This document shows, piece after piece, positions 1 to 6,926 of a DNA stretch of 6,926 bases. The notes below the pieces were generated by a model that saw only the letters and a list, made by a program, of their open reading frames with translations, had not been told where the DNA came from and made no database searches. Positions within the stretch are counted from its first letter, which is position 1. Each line of letters starts with the position of its first letter. The position numbers were made by a program, and so were the translations under genes. Source of the stretch: a virus (Duplodnaviria > Heunggongvirae > Uroviricota > Caudoviricetes); the IMG/VR virus record IMGVR_UViG_2690316188_000015; one strand, given 5' to 3'.

Positions 1-536
1 AATGCCGAACCACCACGACAGCATGGTACCAGCAGGATCCCCGCGTTATTCGGGATATACGGGAGCAGTTTTTTGGCAATATGTAAGCCCTGGCCGACAC
101 AGCCGTACTGCCCTTTGCTCAGGTCTGCCTTCGGATGATTCAGCGTACTCATATCCTGCACATCATGCAGGCAGTGGTCGGCCGGAATAATATCGTTATA
201 TCTGCATGCAGCCCCACCCGGCGTAACTGTACTGCGGCGCGCCAGCTGTTTAATGCGCGGATCCGGAGCATCGTATGAATCCGGCAGCGGAAGCCCTTCA
301 CCGTAAGCCATGGCATTGGACTGCCCGGCCAGTACGATGACGTAGTACCAATCCGGCTCAGTTGCACCACTGACCACCACATCACCTTCTGCTGTAATCG
401 CCTGCATCAGGGTATAAGGGGTTATGGCCACCGGACTACCAAACGGCTGCCAGCCCTCTTTCAGTTTGTGTGTCAGCTTTTCCGCAAGGTCTGACGGCGA
501 CGCCGCCCTGACAACATCATAATGTTTAAATGTCAT
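1..536 (-). CDS. NanS-p-like protein: N-terminal DUF1737-like region plus SGNH/sialate O-acetylesterase domain; partial, 3' end beyond window
   Basis: ATG at 536-534 preceded by GGAGG (minus strand). Frame is open for 178 codons to the window edge. Translation starts MTFKHYDVVRAASPSDLAEKL and contains the GQSNA motif typical of SGNH esterases. Not in the ORF track because it has no stop in the window. Confidence 0.75.
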   Translation of the reverse strand, partial: MTFKHYDVVRAASPSDLAEKLTHKLKEGWQPFGSPVAITPYTLMQAITAEGDVVVSGATEPDWYYVIVLAGQSNAMAYGEGLPLPDSYDAPDPRIKQLARRSTVTPGGAACRYNDIIPADHCLHDVQDMSTLNHPKADLSKGQYGCVGQGLHIAKKLLPYIPNNAGILLVPCCRGGSA

Positions 537-720
537 TATTCCTCCCGGCCGGGATAGTGTATTAAATCAGATATGGAGTGGGCTGTAGTCCGGAAGCCTG
601 AATGACACACGGGGACTACAGCCCAAGAAATGAAAAAAGGCCACGCAGTTGCGCAGCCTGATAAACCCTGGTTAAAATCCACACGATAACAACACAACAA
701 TATCAGTATCTCATGCTATT

Positions 721-746
721 GCCCGAACCCATTCGGGCATTTTTTA
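721..746 (+). terminator. Rho-independent terminator, plus-strand orientation
   Basis: Hairpin GCCCGAA-CCCA-TTCGGGC (721-738) followed by A then TTTTTT (740-745) on the plus strand. Confidence 0.5.
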
Positions 747-750
747 CCCA

Positions 751-778
751 TAAAAAATGCCCCTCCGGAGAGGGGCAT
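751..778 (-). terminator. Rho-independent terminator, minus-strand orientation, downstream of the TerB-like gene
   Basis: 9-bp stem ATGCCCCTC / GAGGGGCAT with CGGA loop (757-778), followed on the minus strand by TTTTTT. Confidence 0.6.
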
Positions 779-943
779 GTTTGCATGCACATTCTTTTTC
801 TTGCATGGTGCCGGGTGCCTCCCGGTGAATTCAGTATCAGCACCTGAATCCGCGATTATCCCATATACCTGGTTGCTGATCGCCCCTCCGCACAGGGGGA
901 TTCACCATGCAGAAGTGTTTTTAATAAACAGCAAACAAAAAAA

Positions 944-1111
944 TCAAGCATTATGCAGGCTGTTTCTTTTTATCACCGGCCACAGCAATACCACAATGCC
1001 GCAGACCAGCACCCCATCCGCCAGCACCGACATGATTCTGCTGGTGAGATCCACCATCACCACCAGAAACAGCAGGAGTGCAGCCACAGCCAGGCGCAGT
1101 TTTACCGTCAC
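944..1111 (-). CDS. Candidate small hydrophobic membrane peptide (55 aa from GTG), possibly translationally coupled to the upstream TerB-like gene
   Basis: GTG start overlaps the TerB-like stop (GTGA overlap). Translation VTVKLRLAVAALLLFLVVMVDLTSRIMSVLADGVLVCGIVVLLWPVIKRNSLHNA has two hydrophobic segments. Below the ORF-track size cutoff. GC-rich region with several open frames, so it may be spurious. Confidence 0.25.
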   Translation of the reverse strand: MTVKLRLAVAALLLFLVVMVDLTSRIMSVLADGVLVCGIVVLLWPVIKRNSLHNA

Positions 1112-1539
1112 AGGTGATTCTCCAGACGAAGACCCAGAACACCGGCAATCTCTTCCAGCACCTTGCGCTCTTCCGGCTCAATTTCGCCGTCTGCCTCCGC
1201 AATGGCCACCGCCACATCCAGCACATCTTCCGCTTCACGCGTATCGTGTTTCACATCCTCAATCTCGCGTAACGCGGCACGACGACCAATTTTAAAATTG
1301 GTATCCAGCTGACCGATAATGGTTGCGCTAATCGCATTAATTTCCGAGGTAAACGCAGACAACGCAGGCTGATTACGTAAGACCTGTTCGATCTTCGCTT
1401 TCTCGGATGCCTCGCATTCACCATCTGCATAGGCCACCAGGTATGCAGCGTTAATCACCGCCTGTGCCAGATCGCGTTTCTCAAACTTTTTAATTTCCGC
1501 TGCCGCTCTGCGGGTTTTCTTTTTGAAGATTCCAAACAT
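1108..1539 (-). CDS. TerB-like (tellurite-resistance TerB family) protein, 143 aa
   Basis: ATG at 1539-1537 with AGGAAC Shine-Dalgarno 7-8 nt upstream. Protein MFGIFKKK...ADGECEASEKAKIEQVL...EADGEIEPEERKVLEEIAGVLGL has the paired ADG/DG plus acidic-helix organisation of TerB. The ORF-track N-terminal extension (start 1611) lacks an RBS. Confidence 0.75.
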   Translation of the reverse strand: MFGIFKKKTRRAAAEIKKFEKRDLAQAVINAAYLVAYADGECEASEKAKIEQVLRNQPALSAFTSEINAISATIIGQLDTNFKIGRRAALREIEDVKHDTREAEDVLDVAVAIAEADGEIEPEERKVLEEIAGVLGLRLENHL

Positions 1540-1671
1540 CGTGACGTTCCTTTGGGTGGGTGAGCCAACGCCCGGGAGCGATCTGCCCACAGAGAAAGTC
1601 ACACTGACCACTCCGTAAGCTCACCCCCGAAAGGCTCTGTGGTTGATATGCGCCGGGCGTGGCGCAGATAC

Positions 1672-1695
1672 AAAAAAGGCCCGCCGAAGCGAGCC
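1672..1695 (-). terminator. Rho-independent terminator just downstream of the tRNA cluster
   Basis: Minus strand reads GGCUCGC-UUCG-GCGGGCC followed by UUUUUU: 7-bp stem with one G-U pair and a UUCG tetraloop, about 14 nt past the tRNA-Arg 3' end. Confidence 0.6.
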
Positions 1696-1708
1696 TGGAA
1701 AATAAGTG

Positions 1709-1785
1709 TGGCGCGTTGTAGTGGAGTCTAACCACTGACCGATTGCTTAGAAGGCAATTGCTCTGTCCGACTGAGCTAACAACGC
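1709..1785 (-). tRNA. argO: tRNA-Arg (anticodon UCU), 77 nt with encoded CCA
   Basis: Manual fold: acceptor GCGTTGT/ACAACGC, D-stem GCTC/GAGC, anticodon stem ATTGC/GCAAT with loop CTTCTAA, CCA encoded. The T-loop TTAGACT is atypical. The symbol is assigned by position in the phage tRNA trio, not by sequence match. Confidence 0.7.
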
Positions 1786-1798
1786 ATGATGCTGATAA

Positions 1799-1875
1799 TG
1801 GACCGCCATCGGGGACTTGAACCCCGCGCAGCCAGCTTCGAAGGCTGGCGCTCTGTCCCGATGAGCTAATAGCGG
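1799..1875 (-). tRNA. argN: tRNA-Arg (anticodon UCG), 77 nt with encoded CCA
   Basis: Acceptor CCGCTAT/ATGGCGG (one G-U pair), D-stem GCTC/GAGC, anticodon stem CCAGC/GCTGG with loop CTTCGAA, T-arm CGGGG-TTCAAGT-CCCCG, CCA encoded. Symbol assigned by position only. Confidence 0.75.
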
Positions 1876-1884
1876 TATGTAATA

Positions 1885-1960
1885 TGGTGGCCCTTGCTGG
1901 ATTTGAACCAGCGACCTGGCGATTATGAGTCGCTCGCTCTCACCACTGAGCTAAAGGGCC
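1885..1960 (-). tRNA. ileZ: tRNA with CAU anticodon, ileX/ileZ-like (tRNA-Ile2 reading AUA after lysidine modification; formally a Met anticodon), 76 nt
   Basis: Sequence GGCCCTTTAGCTCAGTGGTGAGAGCGAGCGACTCATAATCGCCAGGTCGCTGGTTCAAATCCAGCAAGGGCCACCA closely resembles E. coli tRNA-Ile2 as recalled; canonical cloverleaf with T-loop TTCAAAT. Confidence 0.8.
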
Positions 1961-1988
1961 GAGCCAAAAAATAATAATCAGATGAAAA

Positions 1989-2702
1989 TCAATAATCAAG
2001 CCCTTGCCTGGATACATATCTGTCTGGCGGGAAGCCATAATAGCGGTGAAATACAGAAATAAAGTAGGACCTGCTTGAATAACCGCATTTTTCTGCTATA
2101 GCCTGTCCATATCCATGCCGGGAACATAACATATTTACAGCAACACGCATCCGCTCTTCCAGCAACAAGCGACTGAACATGCCCCCTTCATTTTTCAGTT
2201 TTGTCTTTAACAAACTCTCACTCATATGCAACTGTAGAGCAATCGCACCAAGCGTCCAGCTTGCTGATATATCTGTCTGAATTATCGCCCTGACTTTGGC
2301 ACTTATGCTGGATAAACATCCACTTAAAAACAATGACATCCGTTCATCTGTTTCAAACAGAGACAGGCAGGCCATCATAAGAAACATATCCGTGGCCTCT
2401 CCGGAAAATCCCTGGCTGGTAATTAAAGCCGCAGCCAACGCAGGATTGTTGGGTTCCAGCAACAGGTAAAGCGGAATGTCAGTCAGACGAGTCCTCGTCA
2501 GCTTATGCTGACTTTCCAGATATTGACTTACGACGGATTCGCTTATATCGACAATTTTAACTTTGCCATAATGCATAAGGAAAAGCTCCCTGATGCATTT
2601 GGTGGCCAGAACAACTGAGCCTGGCTTAAGTGACAACGTATCCTTTTCAAGAAAAATATTAATTGGGGAGCAAACCATGATAACTGAACAGACAACAGCC
2701 AT
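1989..2702 (-). CDS. AraC/XylS-family transcriptional regulator (AppY/YdeO/GadX-like subfamily), 237 aa, intact copy
   Basis: C-terminal region has both AraC-type helix-turn-helix motifs (WTLGAIALQLHMSESLLKTKLKNEGG... and AIAEKCGYSSRSYFISVFHRYYGFPP). N-terminus MAVVCSV resembles AppY-type regulators. Low GC. Confidence 0.85.
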   Translation of the reverse strand: MAVVCSVIMVCSPINIFLEKDTLSLKPGSVVLATKCIRELFLMHYGKVKIVDISESVVSQYLESQHKLTRTRLTDIPLYLLLEPNNPALAAALITSQGFSGEATDMFLMMACLSLFETDERMSLFLSGCLSSISAKVRAIIQTDISASWTLGAIALQLHMSESLLKTKLKNEGGMFSRLLLEERMRVAVNMLCSRHGYGQAIAEKCGYSSRSYFISVFHRYYGFPPDRYVSRQGLDY

Positions 2703-2737
2703 TATAATTTTACTTTCATTAGCAATTGGTTAGCTCA

Positions 2738-2768
2738 ATTATAGCCCCAAAAGGTAAATTATCATCAA
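2738..2768 (-). promoter_or_regulatory. Possible sigma70 promoter for the AraC-family gene: -35 TTGATG, 19-bp spacer, -10 TATAAT
   Basis: Perfect TATAAT on the minus strand about 36 nt upstream of the ATG. The -35 is weak and the spacer is long. An identical copy lies at 4129-4159 upstream of the truncated paralog. Confidence 0.3.
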
Positions 2769-2821
2769 CACATAAGCAAAGGACTGACAGGTGTCGCCCC
2801 CCCACCAGCCGCCCATTCACC

Positions 2822-2850
2822 ACAAATAAAAAGCCTTCAGGACTGAAGGC
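2822..2850 (-). terminator. Rho-independent terminator overlapping the stop codon of the 65-aa ORF
   Basis: Minus strand reads GCCTTCA-GTCC-TGAAGGC followed by TTTTTATTT. Confidence 0.6.
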
Positions 2851-3034
2851 GTCTGTAACAACCGCACTGATAGTCTGCCAGACCCGCCATAACAAGCTGG
2901 GTCAGTATTAACTGGCAGCGTTCGCGTGAAAGGTAAGTATTCTGCGCAATCTCCCCGACTGTCGCCGGTTCGGTAACGCTTAATTCATCAAACACAACTC
3001 TGGCGGTTTCTGTCATATCCTGCTGTTTCAGCAT
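2837..3034 (-). CDS. Small hypothetical protein (65 aa, or 59 aa from the second ATG), possible helix-turn-helix DNA-binding protein; copy A
   Basis: ORF with AAGGG about 9 nt upstream of the ATG. The only difference from copy B in this ORF is a synonymous change (GTT vs GTC Val at codon 20). Segment TVGEIAQNTYLSRERCQLILTQL is HTH-like. Function unknown. Confidence 0.5.
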   Translation of the reverse strand: MLKQQDMTETARVVFDELSVTEPATVGEIAQNTYLSRERCQLILTQLVMAGLADYQCGCYRRLQS

Positions 3035-3158
3035 GTCTTTTTACCCTTTCCGGTTAACGTGACATACCAATAACTCTTGTCTAAAAAGCCAGCAAGATAA
3101 AAAGCCAGTATTCACGACCACCAGCGTGTTTACTGTACTGCACCAGGTTTACAGGTAC

Positions 3159-3180
3159 AAAAAAACCGCTCAGCGGCGGG
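3159..3180 (-). terminator. Weak candidate terminator in the tail of repeat copy A
   Basis: Minus strand has a short CCGC/GCGG stem followed by TTTTTTT. The homologous site in copy B has a 5-bp stem. Confidence 0.35.
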
Positions 3181-3312
3181 TTTAAGTTGTGTGGCGAAGT
3201 AACCACTCTTAACACACTAATAGCATTTTTGTTATAACACAAGTAGCTCATTCAGTATTTTTAGAATCTTGACTTTCTTAAGCACGGAGAACTCTGAATA
3301 CCAAACATAAAA

Positions 3313-3546
3313 TCAATTATCTTCCAGGCCGGATGCTATCAACGAAAGCCTCTCAAAAAACGCTGTAGCAGCCTTGTCCAAAGTTGAATAAGTACTGTAT
3401 TCTCCGTGTTCGGGACCAACCACTACCCATGGTCGTCTTTTTGGGATTCGGGACTTCTCAGAAATCACTGTTCCAGATATACCAATATCAATTGTTACAC
3501 CTGTTATTATTTTCTCTTCATCTCTTTCCCTGAACTCAATTGCCAT
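3313..3546 (-). CDS. Hypothetical 77-aa ORF in the unique segment between the two repeat copies; possibly a gene remnant
   Basis: ORF-track ORF starting 19 bp inside the unique segment. No Shine-Dalgarno (A-rich upstream). No family recognised. Confidence 0.25.
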   Translation of the reverse strand: MAIEFRERDEEKIITGVTIDIGISGTVISEKSRIPKRRPWVVVGPEHGEYSTYSTLDKAATAFFERLSLIASGLEDN

Positions 3547-4093
3547 AAATGCCGTTTTTTTTTATGAACATGCCCCCTTCATTTTTCAGTTTTGTCTTTA
3601 ACAAACTCTCACTCATATGCAACTGTAGAGCAATCGCACCAAGCGTCCAGCTTGCTGATATATCTGTCTGAATTATCGCCCTGACTTTGGCACTTATGCT
3701 GGATAAACATCCACTTAAAAACAATGACATCCGTTCATCTGTTTCAAACAGAGACAGGCAGGCCATCATAAGAAACATATCCGTGGCCTCTCCGGAAAAT
3801 CCCTGGCTGGTAATTAAAGCCGCAGCCAACGCAGGATTGTTGGGTTCCAGCAACAGGTAAAGCGGAATGTCAGTCAGACGAGTCCTCGTCAGCTTATGCT
3901 GACTTTCCAGATATTGACTTACGACGGATTCGCTTATATCGACAATTTTAACTTTGCCATAATGCATAAGGAAAAGCTCCCTGATGCATTTGGTGGCCAG
4001 AACAACTGAGCCTGGCTTAAGTGACAACGTATCCTTTTCAAGAAAAATATTAATTGGGGAGCAAACCATGATAACTGAACAGACAACAGCCAT
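3536..4093 (-). pseudogene. Truncated paralog of the AraC-family regulator: N-terminal domain plus first HTH, residues 1-176 identical to copy A, then 9 unrelated codons and a stop
   Basis: Identical to copy A through ...KLKNEGGMF, then diverges exactly at the repeat boundary (3565) into IKKNGIYGN-stop. The second HTH is missing. Confidence 0.7.
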
Positions 4094-4212
4094 TATAATT
4101 TTACTTTCATTAGCAATTGGTTAGCTCAATTATAGCCCCAAAAGGTAAATTATCATCAACACATAAGCAAAGGACTGACAGGTGTCGCCCCCCCACCAGC
4201 CGCCCATTCACC

Positions 4213-4241
4213 ACAAATAAAAAGCCTTCAGGACTGAAGGC
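4213..4241 (-). terminator. Rho-independent terminator after the 65-aa ORF, copy B
   Basis: Identical to the terminator at 2822-2850. Confidence 0.6.
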
Positions 4242-4425
4242 GTCTGTAACAACCGCACTGATAGTCTGCCAGACCCGCCATAACAAGCTGGGTCAGTATT
4301 AACTGGCAGCGTTCGCGTGAAAGGTAAGTATTCTGCGCAATCTCCCCGACTGTCGCCGGTTCGGTGACGCTTAATTCATCAAACACAACTCTGGCGGTTT
4401 CTGTCATATCCTGCTGTTTCAGCAT
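4228..4425 (-). CDS. Small hypothetical protein (65 aa), copy B; protein identical to copy A
   Basis: Same ORF as 2837-3034 within the duplicated core. Confidence 0.5.
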   Translation of the reverse strand: MLKQQDMTETARVVFDELSVTEPATVGEIAQNTYLSRERCQLILTQLVMAGLADYQCGCYRRLQS

Positions 4426-4548
4426 GTCTTTTTACCCTTTCCGGTTAACGTGACACACCAATAACTCTTGCCGAAAAAGCCAGCAAGCTGAAAGACCTGT
4501 ATTAATAACTACCAGCACATTTAACGCACTGCGCTACTTTGCGGGCAC

Positions 4549-4571
4549 AAAAAACCCGCTCAGAGGCGGGG
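4549..4571 (-). terminator. Candidate rho-independent terminator between the CPBP gene and repeat copy B
   Basis: Minus strand reads CCCGC-CTCTGA-GCGGG followed by TTTTTTG, about 150 nt downstream of the CPBP stop. Confidence 0.5.
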
Positions 4572-4711
4572 TCAAGCTATGCGGCGAAATAACCACTCTT
4601 AACAGCATACCTGATTTTTTACGTACGTAAATGCTTTGCCGTGCATATTTTTCATGCAAATGTCACGTCCTGCTATTTTTCAGTCTTATAAATTTAAAAC
4701 CATAGAAAAAA

Positions 4712-5530
4712 TCAATTATGTTTTAAAAATGGATAGGTAAAGAATAACAAGTGACACAGATTCAAACCAAAATGGAAAAGGGTGGCAACCCACAAACGCC
4801 CACTCCACATCCATGACAATCCATACACAACACCAGATAACGTGGCAAATAATACAAGTAAAGCACCACCTGAATAGTGATAAAAACCAAACAACAAAGC
4901 CGCCACAATTAATGCAACCAATGGAGACGTTACTTCTGATAGCCGTGATTGAATATACCCTCTAAATAATGATTCCTCTGCCAGAGACACAAAAAACAAA
5001 TTAGCCAATATAAACTCTGGCAACCACTCAGGAAAATGAATCTCTGGCTTTAATCCACCAAAAAAAACAGCCAAAAACAGGATAAGAGGAACAGAGAGCG
5101 ACAGAGCCCCCCACTTCCACAAAGACACTTCTGATTTTACTTCTTTTTTAAACAAAGAAGATGTACACAGGACTAACAAAAATGGCACCAGCGCTTTATC
5201 AAAATTAAAATACATTGTATAGGGAGTACTTTGAGGGCCAACAGTAACAGAATTTAGCACTACAGGATTGTGAAACCCTGGCCATAGATGGAAAGATAAT
5301 GCTATGGCTGATAAAACTATGCCAACTTCATATATAGATTTAGCCCAGGCGTTATATTTCCAGTTGAACTTCAAAATAATAAAAAAAACGATTGTAGCAA
5401 CAAAAAATAACACCGACCAATCAATAATATCATTAAGCACAGCCAGGACAACAGACACCGTCAACAATGAAAAAGCCACTACCTTATGCCAACTGAGAGT
5501 TGACAGTGACAGTACTAACACAATCCACAT
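4712..5530 (-). CDS. CPBP-family (CAAX protease / Abi-domain, PF02517-like) intramembrane metalloprotease, about 272 aa
   Basis: ATG at 5530-5528 with AGGAG and a 5-nt spacer (the ORF-track GTG at 5536 is rejected). Polytopic hydrophobic protein with all three CPBP motifs: EESLFR (EExxxR), FGFYH (FxxxH) and HFGLN (HxxxN). Low GC, roughly 38% by eye. Confidence 0.8.
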   Translation of the reverse strand: MWIVLVLSLSTLSWHKVVAFSLLTVSVVLAVLNDIIDWSVLFFVATIVFFIILKFNWKYNAWAKSIYEVGIVLSAIALSFHLWPGFHNPVVLNSVTVGPQSTPYTMYFNFDKALVPFLLVLCTSSLFKKEVKSEVSLWKWGALSLSVPLILFLAVFFGGLKPEIHFPEWLPEFILANLFFVSLAEESLFRGYIQSRLSEVTSPLVALIVAALLFGFYHYSGGALLVLFATLSGVVYGLSWMWSGRLWVATLFHFGLNLCHLLFFTYPFLKHN

Positions 5531-5681
5531 AAGCACTCCTTTTATTTAATGATGAAGATTGATTATCAATATTTTCAATTCACCAGGCAACATTTTATCT
5601 ACCTTCCACAATACATGACCATCAAAAAATAAACATGTTAATTATAAACACAGAAAACATAACCCTCATCACTATATATCC
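5531..5681 (-). promoter_or_regulatory. AT-rich region immediately downstream of Q; expected location of the Q-dependent late promoter and Q-utilisation site
   Basis: Positional inference from lambdoid phage organisation. Several -10-like hexamers are present (TATAAT, TAAAAT) but no element could be assigned confidently. Confidence 0.3.
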
Positions 5682-6053
5682 CTACCGCATATCCATATCT
5701 AACCGGACATTCAGAGCCATAAGCATTCCTTCAATAATACCTTCCGCTTTATAAAGCCTTTTACCAATAAGCCCATCAGAACATCTATGCTTACGTGCAA
5801 GAGCCATAAATGTCATTCCACCTACGTAATAATCCACCAACAAATCGTGCAAATACTGATTATTCTTGTTTAATCGTGCCATACAACCACAAATTATCAT
5901 GGCGTCATCATCAGAACACTGAGGACGTGATTTCACTTTAGTCGGGATTAATCCTTTAAAACCAGCAGCTATCGAGGGCCATGTTACATCTTCATGATTA
6001 TTTGCTGCCCATGCCCCCCATCGCTCAAGAACCATCTGGATATCACGCGCCAT
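5682..6053 (-). CDS. Q: Late-gene antiterminator Q (QuuD/phage-82-type), 123 aa from the ATG
   Basis: Protein [25 protein letters not shown]...[14 protein letters not shown]... closely resembles E. coli prophage QuuD-type Q as recalled. GAGGTGG Shine-Dalgarno before the ATG at 6053; start overlaps the end of rusA. Confidence 0.85.
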
Positions 6054-6414
6054 CGTTACCACCTCTGATTTCGTAAATCTTCACGCCCAGCCGTCCACCT
6101 GGCACAGGCTGACCGCGCACAATATTGATTTCATCAAACTGCTCGTCATCAATGAGCACTTCCGCATGCGTCAGCGCATCCAGCGGTGCTTTCAGAATGT
6201 TGTCCAGGTCACGGCGGCGCTTATCCGGTGGTTCTGCAATAATTTTTATTGCCAGCCGTCCGGACAGGCTTAATTTCAGCCGCTGCTGGCGAACAATAAG
6301 CGCCACAGCCCGGCGATAACGCTCACCGGCTTTTGATACAAAATATGTGCTGCCACGACGTCGCCAGTAGGTGTTCACCGTCGGCGGGTAAGGCAAAACA
6401 AACTCTATACGCAT
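6043..6414 (-). CDS. rusA: RusA-family Holliday-junction resolvase, 123 aa
   Basis: AAGAGG Shine-Dalgarno 6 nt before the ATG at 6414. Motifs [19 protein letters not shown] and GGRLGV match the RusA family (compare DLP12 RusA ...PDRRRRDLDNLQKAAFDAL...). Position immediately upstream of Q is typical. Confidence 0.85.
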
Positions 6415-6426
6415 CAGTAACCTCTT

Positions 6427-6926
6427 TTACCCGAGCACGCCGGTTGCAAAAGCGTGATCAAGAAAACGAAAAATTAAATCAACCTGGGAACCATGCTTTT
6501 CTTCGAACGCCAGCGGATCCGCATGAAGCTCGTTGTGATGCTCCCGACACAGCGGTAGCGTGAAAATATCGTGGGATTTTGTTCCCATTCCACCCTGACC
6601 ATGACCAATCAGATGATGAGGATCGTCCGCTGGCTTACCACAACACGCACACGGCTGTGTCTTTACCCAGCGTGTGTATTTCTCATTTACCCAGCGGCGA
6701 CGTTTAGGTCGTTTCATGAAGGATTCCGGAGACTCCGGATCAACGGCAATGCTGACCACCGTCTTTTCCTGTGGTGGGTTCTGTTGCTGGTGGGTGTGAG
6801 GCGGTAGCGCAATATTTTTTGTGCGCTGCTTCAGTATGCTGGTGGCGGTCTGTTCTCCCGGTATGATGTCGCTTTCACGGTATACGGAGCGGATTTTTTC
6901 CGCCGGTAATCCCAGAGAACGACGCG
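6427..6926 (-). CDS. DUF968-like protein with HNH-like Cys/His cluster; partial, 5' end beyond window
   Basis: The reading frame is open from the window edge (6926) to the stop at 6427. The ORF-track GTG at 6759 is only the first in-window start codon. Motif CACCGKPADDPHHLIGHG...CREHHNELH is present. Confidence 0.65.
   Translation of the reverse strand, partial: RRSLGLPAEKIRSVYRESDIIPGEQTATSILKQRTKNIALPPHTHQQQNPPQEKTVVSIAVDPESPESFMKRPKRRRWVNEKYTRWVKTQPCACCGKPADDPHHLIGHGQGGMGTKSHDIFTLPLCREHHNELHADPLAFEEKHGSQVDLIFRFLDHAFATGVLG

Follow-up and report, generated by a model that had tools for sequence, protein, structure and literature searches.

The window, i. e. the whole stretch of 6,926 nucleotides that was analysed, represents the late-regulatory region of a lambdoid prophage, and all of its relevant genes are located on the minus strand. 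In the direction of transcription, the genes for a DUF968 protein, RusA and the late antiterminator Q are followed by the gene for a CPBP/CAAX intramembrane protease, by the two copies of a direct repeat that each hold a small gene and sequences of an AraC-type regulator gene, by three tRNA genes, and finally by a TerB-family gene (see Table 1). The regulator gene next to the tRNAs, psrB, is intact, the copy upstream of it, psrB', is truncated.

Table 1. Features of the psrB locus and its surroundings, with positions counted from the first nucleotide of the window.
Feature	Position	Strand	Basis or remark
TerB-family gene	1108-1611	-	
Terminator-like hairpin beyond the tRNAs	1677-1696		
tRNA Arg-TCT (the trio in Sakai is ileZ/argN/argO)	1709-1785	-	ARAGORN, Rfam
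tRNA Arg-TCG (the trio in Sakai is ileZ/argN/argO)	1799-1875	-	ARAGORN, Rfam
tRNA with CAT anticodon (in Sakai ileZ, tRNA-Ile)	1885-1960	-	ARAGORN, Rfam, Sakai annotation
psrB, intact AraC/XylS-family regulator, 237 aa (allele WP_000301785.1)	1989-2702	-	ORF call, Pfam, identity
Direct repeat, copy 2	2174-3114		941 bp, offset 1391; partner 3565-4505
Sigma-70-like promoter candidate of psrB, ATGATA-16 nt-TATAAT	2738-2765	-	10/12 consensus positions
Terminator-like hairpin GCCTTCAGTCCTGAAGGC, then T-run	2833-2850	-	Overlaps the 65-aa gene at its stop codon; precedes the psrB promoter candidate
psr-linked 65-aa gene, possible small winged-helix protein	2837-3034	-	ORF, PHROG 331
Recombination junction and 77-aa ORF (3313-3546)	3313-3564	-	A9 tract at the junction
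psrB', 185 aa, PsrB residues 1-176 plus the tail IKKNGIYGN	3536-4093	-	ORF, comparison with PsrB
Direct repeat, copy 1	3565-4505		Holds psrB' and duplicates of the promoter candidate (4156-4129) and of the 65-aa gene (4228-4425)
CPBP/CAAX intramembrane protease, cargo between Q and the psr module	4712-5536	-	Pfam Rce1-like, 1.4e-19
Late antiterminator Q	5682-6062	-	Pfam Phage_antitermQ, 4.9e-52
RusA	6043-6414	-	
DUF968 protein	6427-6759	-	

The initial annotation of this DNA had described an intact regulator of 237 amino acids with a full AraC-type C-terminus containing two helix-turn-helix (HTH) motifs, and this description holds: The psrB open reading frame begins with ATG and is free of internal stop codons, and its product scores above the Pfam cut-offs both for HTH_AraC (50.3 bits in two stretches, cut-off 26.6) and for HTH_18 (39.8 bits over residues 155-230, cut-off 33.6). 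Both AraC-type HTH motifs are found within residues 141-230. The dual-HTH C-terminal domain is complete, and the protein thus has the C-terminal domain of about 100 amino acids with two HTH motifs (Pfam) that is characteristic of the AraC/XylS family. M1 is the right start of the protein since its alignments with GadW, AppY and PatE begin at residue 1 of each of these relatives, with the M-x-x-x-C-S-V motif at the N-terminus. In the older annotation of the Sakai genome, the start of psr had been placed at M43, resulting in a protein of 195 amino acids. RefSeq lists the protein as "helix-turn-helix domain-containing protein", and the PHROG to which it belongs is one of unknown function. The gene is low in GC as had been stated before, with 43.8% as compared to 52.5% for positions 1-1988 and 49.4% for positions 5701-6926; the segment from 1989 to 5700 has a GC content of 41.6%. 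Its position next to the tRNA trio was also described correctly: psrB ends 28 nucleotides upstream of the three minus-strand tRNAs at 1709-1960.

Several lines of evidence identify the gene as an allele of psrB. First, the encoded protein shares 234 of its 237 residues (98.7%) with the copy in O-island 57 (OI-57) of E. coli O157:H7 EDL933 (WP_000301797.1), and equally 234 of 237 with ECs_2191 of the Sakai prophage Sp11. Second, Sp11 carries nleG2-3, nleG6-2 and nleG5-2, which are the OI-57 effectors z2149-z2151; the EDL933 copy itself falls within the published coordinates of OI-57. Third, ECs_2191 is 90.7% identical to ECs_1087, and this value fits the 90% identity of PsrB and PsrA that is given in the review PMC10877973. 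ECs_1087, located in Sp4, is psrA in the naming of the Tree laboratory (PMC13502914), and it served as the PsrA reference throughout this study. In the review literature, PsrA corresponds to z1789 in OI-50, which disagrees with the assignment of psrA to ecs1087 in Sp4 (PMC10877973, PMC13502914). The protein encoded in the window is fully identical to WP_000301785.1 and differs from the characterised PsrB by the substitutions A103V, H196Y and I202V, two of which adjoin the second HTH motif. It is 90.7% identical to PsrA, with 22 substitutions that mostly affect the N-terminal domain. As judged from these identities, the ORF is not a new gene but psrB, a prophage regulator of the AraC type that had been characterised before as an activator of host acid-resistance genes in pathogenic E. 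coli.

Among the more distant relatives, PatE (z0321 according to the review, here taken as ECs_0287 of Sakai Sp1) is a homologue over the full length, 37% identical to the psrB product over residues 1-232. Like PsrB, PatE is a prophage-borne AraC-like activator of acid resistance, and the same target region at the hdeA promoter has been described for it (PMC10877973). In contrast to psrB, however, it is a distant paralogue that resides in another prophage and in another slot, without the linked 65-amino acid gene and without adjacent tRNAs. Over their full length, GadW and AppY share 35% and 28.6% of their residues, respectively, with the psrB product, and AppY is itself prophage-borne (DLP12). 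The N-terminal M-x-x-x-C-S-V motif is common to PsrB, GadW, YdeO and AppY. The N-terminus had initially been described as similar to AppY and GadX; the similarity to AppY stands, whereas GadX aligns only over residues 108-234 (41% identity, BLASTP) and thus drops out. The equivalog models of NCBIfam were also considered: The psrB product reaches 108.5 bits with the YdeO model NF007407 (residues 1-229 against 1-230 of 253; cut-off 348) and 87 bits with the GadX model NF007432 (residues 108-232 only; cut-off 500), and both assignments were rejected because the scores are below the cut-offs. The protein is therefore a homologue of YdeO, GadW and AppY, but not an equivalog. The closest solved full-length structures are those of Rns, CsvR and ToxT (PDB; phmmer 5e-16, residues 110-230), and the DNA-binding domain of GadX (3mkl) matches the protein with an E-value of 7e-19. 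An AF2 model that was calculated from an alignment of 11 sequences is poor (pLDDT 64, pTM 0.41); in a Foldseek comparison of this model to Rns, CsvR and ToxT, E-values of about 1e-8 over approximately 250 columns were obtained at a TM-score of 0.28 and about 20% identity. In ligand-binding virulence regulators of the Rns/ToxT type, a beta-rich N-terminal domain with a fatty-acid pocket is packed on the DNA-binding domain.

The genomic context agrees with that of the known psr genes. In the window as well as in Sp4 and Sp11, the slot is built in the order Q antiterminator, variable cargo, 65-amino acid gene, psr and tRNAs, and the typical surroundings of PsrA and PsrB, i. e. a lambdoid prophage, a position between Q and the lysis genes and the ileZ/argN/argO tRNAs, are all present. 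The psrB loci of Sp11 and OI-57 (z2104 in EDL933, ECs_2191 in Sakai) resemble the window in the length of the full ORF, in the promoter region, in the 65-amino acid gene 134 nucleotides upstream, and in the location of psr directly upstream of the prophage tRNAs. They differ in that they have only ileZ and argO whereas the window has all three tRNAs, in the upstream cargo, and in the truncated duplicate that is found upstream in the window. The psrA locus of Sp4 shares the complete order RusA, Q, CPBP protease, small gene, psr and ileZ argN argO with the window, with the CPBP gene at the position of ECs_1085, and the DNA of positions 3565-6926 is 98.3% identical to that of Sp4. PsrA and PsrB are described as associated with effector loci and with Pch regulators, which belong to the PerC family, on the same prophage. 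A gene of the PerC family is present about 7 kb downstream of the identical protein in six further loci (L003, L007, L008, L009, L011, L012) and likewise downstream in Sp4, Sp11 and OI-57; the window ends before this region.

A constant companion of psr is the 65-amino acid gene, which was located 134 nucleotides upstream in all ten loci inspected. Its product matches PHROG 331, a family of unknown function, with an E-value of 6e-37 and shows a weak similarity to Pfam TrmB that is below the cut-off (E = 0.003). The Sakai protein ECs_2192 differs from it at 2 of 65 residues; in Sp4, unlike in the window, a frameshift has altered the C-terminus and extended the protein to 79 amino acids. The hairpin that separates this gene from the psrB promoter candidate is retained in Sp4 and Sp11. 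The initial annotation had mentioned a possible TATAAT promoter, and such a site is indeed present (ATGATA-16-TATAAT, 2765-2738), with a -10 region ending 35 nucleotides upstream of the psrB start codon. It is the best promoter-like match of the region, and it is unchanged in the copies in the window and at the Sakai psrA and psrB loci. The promoter scan as a whole was not above chance, with 14 sites as compared to 9.1 +/- 3.3 expected from shuffled sequence, and the argument for this promoter therefore rests on its conservation rather than on the match to the consensus. A scan of the psr region against Rfam revealed no known RNAs besides the tRNAs; a match to Plastid-ycf2 was below the threshold and was discarded as an antisense-tRNA artefact.

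This arrangement suggests how psrB might be expressed. During lysogeny, transcription of psrB would start from a conserved, sigma-70-like candidate promoter of its own, and the terminator-like hairpins on both sides may insulate it from transcription of the neighbouring genes. After induction of the prophage, Q-modified RNA polymerase would probably read through psrB as well.

In addition to this location in the path of the late operon, between Q and the lysis genes and in the same orientation, the 65-amino acid gene as a constant and possibly DNA-binding companion might indicate that psrB is a phage-internal regulator of late or lysogeny genes, with incidental effects on the host. We consider this extremely improbable for several reasons. 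The module is missing from otherwise similar prophages: An AraC-type gene was sought in the Sakai prophages Sp6 and Sp10 as well as in prophage CP-933N (OI-50) of the re-sequenced EDL933 and was not found there, and most Stx phages are devoid of the psr module. Such a pattern would be expected for an accessory cargo rather than for a core regulator of the phage. Moreover, psrB has its own promoter candidate and the flanking hairpins, and its GC content is below that of the neighbouring core genes. Finally, the published targets are all host genes (PMC10877973), and the closest relatives outside of the Psr proteins, GadW, YdeO, AppY and PatE, are regulators of host acid resistance. The initial annotation had also envisaged, as a refutation of a role on host genes, that the closest homologues might turn out to be phage-internal regulators; instead, they are PsrB and PsrA, which activate acid resistance of the host, and the proposal is thus not refuted.

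The neighbourhood of the module likewise shows the pattern of a mobile cargo. Among ten loci, the gene beyond the 65-amino acid gene codes for a 205-amino acid WYL-domain protein, for an ORF6N protein or for an uncharacterised ORF of 148 amino acids on the opposite strand, or it is Q directly; in Sakai Sp4 and in non-O157 STEC prophages the CPBP protease is upstream of the psr module. Stx phages carry stx in the same late-regulatory region. In phage phiSTEC1575-Stx2k, a psr-family gene is located directly upstream of the tRNAs and of stx2k, and this supports the idea that the psr module is probably a mobile cargo ('moron') at the hotspot that is also used by stx. A psr gene is present in 726 of 5,426 complete E. 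coli genomes (about 13%), in 595 of them with at least 99% identity, so that the proper naming of psrB has some practical value. The index of a public assembly collection lists the exact protein of the window in 7,648 blocks, and the carriers of psr include strains of human and of bovine origin.

How prophage cargo wires itself into the stress network of its host is illustrated in textbook fashion by the Psr regulators. According to the literature, PsrA and PsrB raise GadE and YhiF (PMC10877973, citing Tree 2011 and Yang 2015; PMC8565820, PMC3355084). PsrB binds directly to the gadE promoter and to the hdeA promoter between -132 and -45; PsrA and PsrB activate gadE, yhiF and hdeA, resulting in higher acid resistance, and the LEE-encoded type III secretion is repressed by GadE and YhiF and thus indirectly by Psr (PMC10877973, PMC8565820, PMC3355084). 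The same sources report a contribution of PsrA to persistence in sheep (PMC10877973, PMC8565820, PMC3355084), and one of them an increase of acid resistance and of survival during passage through the mouse stomach upon induction of PsrB (PMC10877973). In addition, psrA is up-regulated by HnrS, a prophage-encoded small RNA that targets Hha and that is located among the late genes of Sp9, Sp10 and Sp12 (PMC13502914).

By analogy to the EDL933 protein, with which it is 98.7% identical, the PsrB protein of the window would bind via its two-HTH C-terminal domain to AT-rich host promoters, i. e. to the region between -132 and -45 of hdeA and to the gadE promoter. It would then raise GadE and YhiF and thus induce the GAD system (AR2) together with the chaperones HdeAB, and in LEE-positive hosts, GadE and YhiF would in turn repress type III secretion. 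The proposal of the initial annotation that the regulator may act on the acid-resistance and virulence regulons of the host is therefore in good agreement with the identities to PsrB (98.7%) and PsrA (90.7%) and with the host targets published for them. In EHEC and EPEC, Psr in this way couples the timing of type III secretion to acid resistance, which is required for the passage of the stomach.

It is conceivable that psrB is intact and nevertheless has little effect in its host, either because it is silenced, e. g. by H-NS/Hha on AT-rich prophage DNA, or because it is redundant with other psr genes, patE or gadW/gadX, and is thus a decaying cargo. The deletion of psrB alone in O157 had little effect on type III secretion (PMC10877973), indicating that the gene is possibly redundant. 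Such redundancy would fit to the number of copies, with a median of two and up to four in the psr-carrying complete E. coli genomes; moreover, many variants in the databases are frameshifted, at a G5 tract or an A-run, or truncated (P0036, P0040, P0041, P0047, P0048), the window itself contains a broken copy, and the response of psrA to the Hha-targeting HnrS suggests that such genes are silenced (PMC13502914). We nonetheless regard a largely ineffective psrB as unlikely: Its reading frame is uninterrupted, the exact protein is shared by a very large number of assemblies and occurs in different prophage backbones, the candidate promoter is invariant between psrA and psrB loci, and induction of PsrB increased acid resistance and survival in the mouse stomach (PMC10877973).

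The initial annotation of the regulator was silent about the truncated second copy 1.39 kb upstream. The two repeat copies are identical up to positions 3064 and 4455, respectively, with the exception of one synonymous difference (2975 versus 4366), and they differ at nine positions across 3065-3114. The psrB' product covers only positions 1-33 of the 42 positions of the Pfam HTH_AraC model, with a score of 23.3 bits that is below the cut-off, and Pfam together with the low-confidence structural model suggests that the N-terminal domain is retained in psrB' together with the first HTH motif, whereas the linker helix and the second motif are missing. At the junction (...ATGTTCA-T-AAAAAAAAACGGC...), codon 176 of psrB is followed by one extra T, by the A9 tract and by the last eight codons of the gene for the WYL-domain protein. 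In this gene, the tract consists of eight A residues where it is intact and codes for 205 amino acids, and of nine in an H1-type genome and in the window. The A9 tract splits the WYL gene into ORFs of 131 and 77 amino acids, and the 77-amino acid ORF is thus the C-terminal fragment of the 205-amino acid protein (PHROG 8498, positions 129-205 of 205).

The two sides of the junction point to different origins. The left part (3565-6926) is 99.2-99.8% identical to non-O157 STEC prophages of the CPBP type, whereas the right part (1-3564) is 98.8-100% identical to prophages of the WYL type. The structure therefore appears to be a recombinant of two psr-carrying prophage types, and the most plausible reading of psrB' is that it was left behind when two distinct prophages, both with a psr gene, underwent illegitimate recombination. 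We rejected a simple duplication in tandem, since the 450 bp that separate the repeats (3115-3564) have no counterpart upstream of copy 1 and since the two copies begin to differ beyond 3064/4455.

The same two matches, to CPBP-type prophages on the left and WYL-type prophages on the right, would also result if the tandem of psrB' and psrB were a chimera of two co-resident prophages that arose during assembly or sequencing; in this case, there would be just one intact psrB locus of each type. The A9 homopolymer at the junction is a typical site of sequencing errors. The duplication junction was found neither among the listed matches in complete E. coli genomes nor in the GTDB representatives, IMG/VR or the JGI metagenomes, as might be expected for an artefact. 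However, mis-joins at a shared repeat usually appear as a simple switch inside the repeat rather than as a duplication in which unrelated sequences meet at a new junction, and the divergence of the copies upstream of 3064/4455 is what two distinct parents predict. We therefore judge a chimera to be quite unlikely, and less likely than a strain-specific rearrangement. Exact look-ups of the 185-amino acid psrB' product and of its 143-amino acid version starting at M43 gave no record.

It may be asked whether psrB' is more than debris. It shares the promoter region and the 5' sequence of psrB, and the neighbouring truncated copy could modify the activity of PsrB. The fragment could interfere with PsrB, PsrA or GadW-type relatives; this would require self-association through the N-terminal domain. 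Moreover, the loss of one A, i. e. a change from A9 to A8, would join PsrB(1-176) and the 77-amino acid C-terminal part of the WYL protein in one reading frame, and slippage could thus act as a toggle. It is tempting to speculate that psrB' is a dominant-negative brake on the switch between acid resistance and type III secretion, with slippage toggling between two products, yet we consider this very improbable.

Taken together, the locus is very probably explained best by an ORF that is psrB, a late-region prophage cargo activating the acid resistance of the host, with the upstream psrB' as a by-product of recombination. With the ORF recognised as psrB, no new biology is required, and nothing but the truncated duplicate departs from the usual layout of the locus. 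Unless it proves to be expressed and active, this duplicate is of local interest only, as a minor case of lambdoid prophages of one host recombining at a cargo hotspot.

The window carries a second, truncated copy of the regulator gene psrB, designated psrB', which lies with its own copies of the promoter candidate and of a small 65-aa gene in a direct repeat of the psr module (see the table). psrB' arose by fusion of psrB, at codon 176, with the 3'-terminal codons of a WYL-domain gene, and the junction is located at window position 3564/3565. The integrity of the WYL-domain gene depends on its adenine tract: with eight residues (A8), the gene is a single ORF of 205 aa, and nine residues (A9), the state of both the window and NZ_CP148374, break it into ORFs of 131 and 77 aa. 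Judging from the sequence, an A8 tract in the window would bring the 77-aa part into frame with psrB' and yield a fusion of the two. The psrB'/WYL junction had no match in complete E. coli genomes (among the matches listed), GTDB representatives, IMG/VR or the JGI metagenomes.

Features in and around the psr module (window coordinates)
Feature	Position	Strand	Remarks
AgvB, prophage anti-sRNA	684-745	+	Rfam, 96.5 bits; consensus matched perfectly
STnc100 sRNA	746-939	-	Rfam, 142.7 bits
CAT-anticodon tRNA	1885-1960	-	ARAGORN: 'Met'
Direct repeat carrying the psr module	2174-3114 / 3565-4505
Poly-G tract	about 2795-2803 and 4186-4194		between 65-aa gene terminator and psr promoter
65-aa gene, two copies	2837-3034 and 4228-4425	-	PHROG 331, function unknown
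67-nt element, two copies	3148-3214 and 4538-4604	-	upstream of each 65-aa gene
psrB' (second, truncated psrB copy)	3536-4093	-	185 aa
A9 tract at the psrB' junction	3546-3564		counterpart in loci L004, L005 and L010 around 6133

Many psr variants in the databases are frameshifted, either in a G5 tract (codons 172-174) or in an A-run (codons 165-168), both of which immediately precede the part encoding the DNA-binding domain's second half. Examples are the homologues P0036, P0040, P0041, P0047 and P0048, with sites equivalent to about 2174-2210 of the window. Decay of psr genes seems to be frequent and to cluster at homopolymer tracts.

The 65-aa gene is always found 134 nt upstream of psr (10 of the 10 loci inspected), and a terminator-like hairpin separates the two genes. 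Its product has a weak TrmB-like winged-helix match, and the Sakai Sp4 copy carries a frameshift that alters the C-terminus. The protein may act as a Psr partner; alternatively, its gene may be a mere fellow traveller of psr. The 67-nt element closes with a hairpin that resembles an intrinsic terminator (CCCGCC..GAGCGGG and then a T-run), its two copies in the window are 84% alike, and the Rfam search revealed no matching family; it may be a terminator or a short-transcript module that moves with the psr cassette. The poly-G tract varies in length among loci: the window has G7 and Sakai Sp11 has G8, and in Sp4 the tract is interrupted.

The literature places psrA at two different loci: in reviews, it is z1789 in OI-50, and according to the Tree laboratory it is ecs1087 in Sp4. 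We found no AraC gene in the OI-50 prophage (CP-933N) of the re-sequenced EDL933 genome, nor in its Sakai counterpart, Sp6. The discrepancy may stem from a confusion of similar prophages in the original EDL933 assembly or numbering.

In the complete genome of the Stx-converting phage phiSTEC1575-Stx2k, a psr-family gene (5328-6041) with its 65-aa partner immediately precedes the tRNA trio and stx2k; a single phage can thus carry both an acid-resistance regulator and Shiga toxin. The CAT-anticodon tRNA of the window is annotated in Sakai and in most RefSeq records as ileZ, a tRNA-Ile that reads Ile codons after lysidine modification, and the RefSeq records are divided between Ile and Met. AgvB and STnc100 are arranged back to back between a DUF3927 gene and a sialate esterase gene that extends past the edge of the window.
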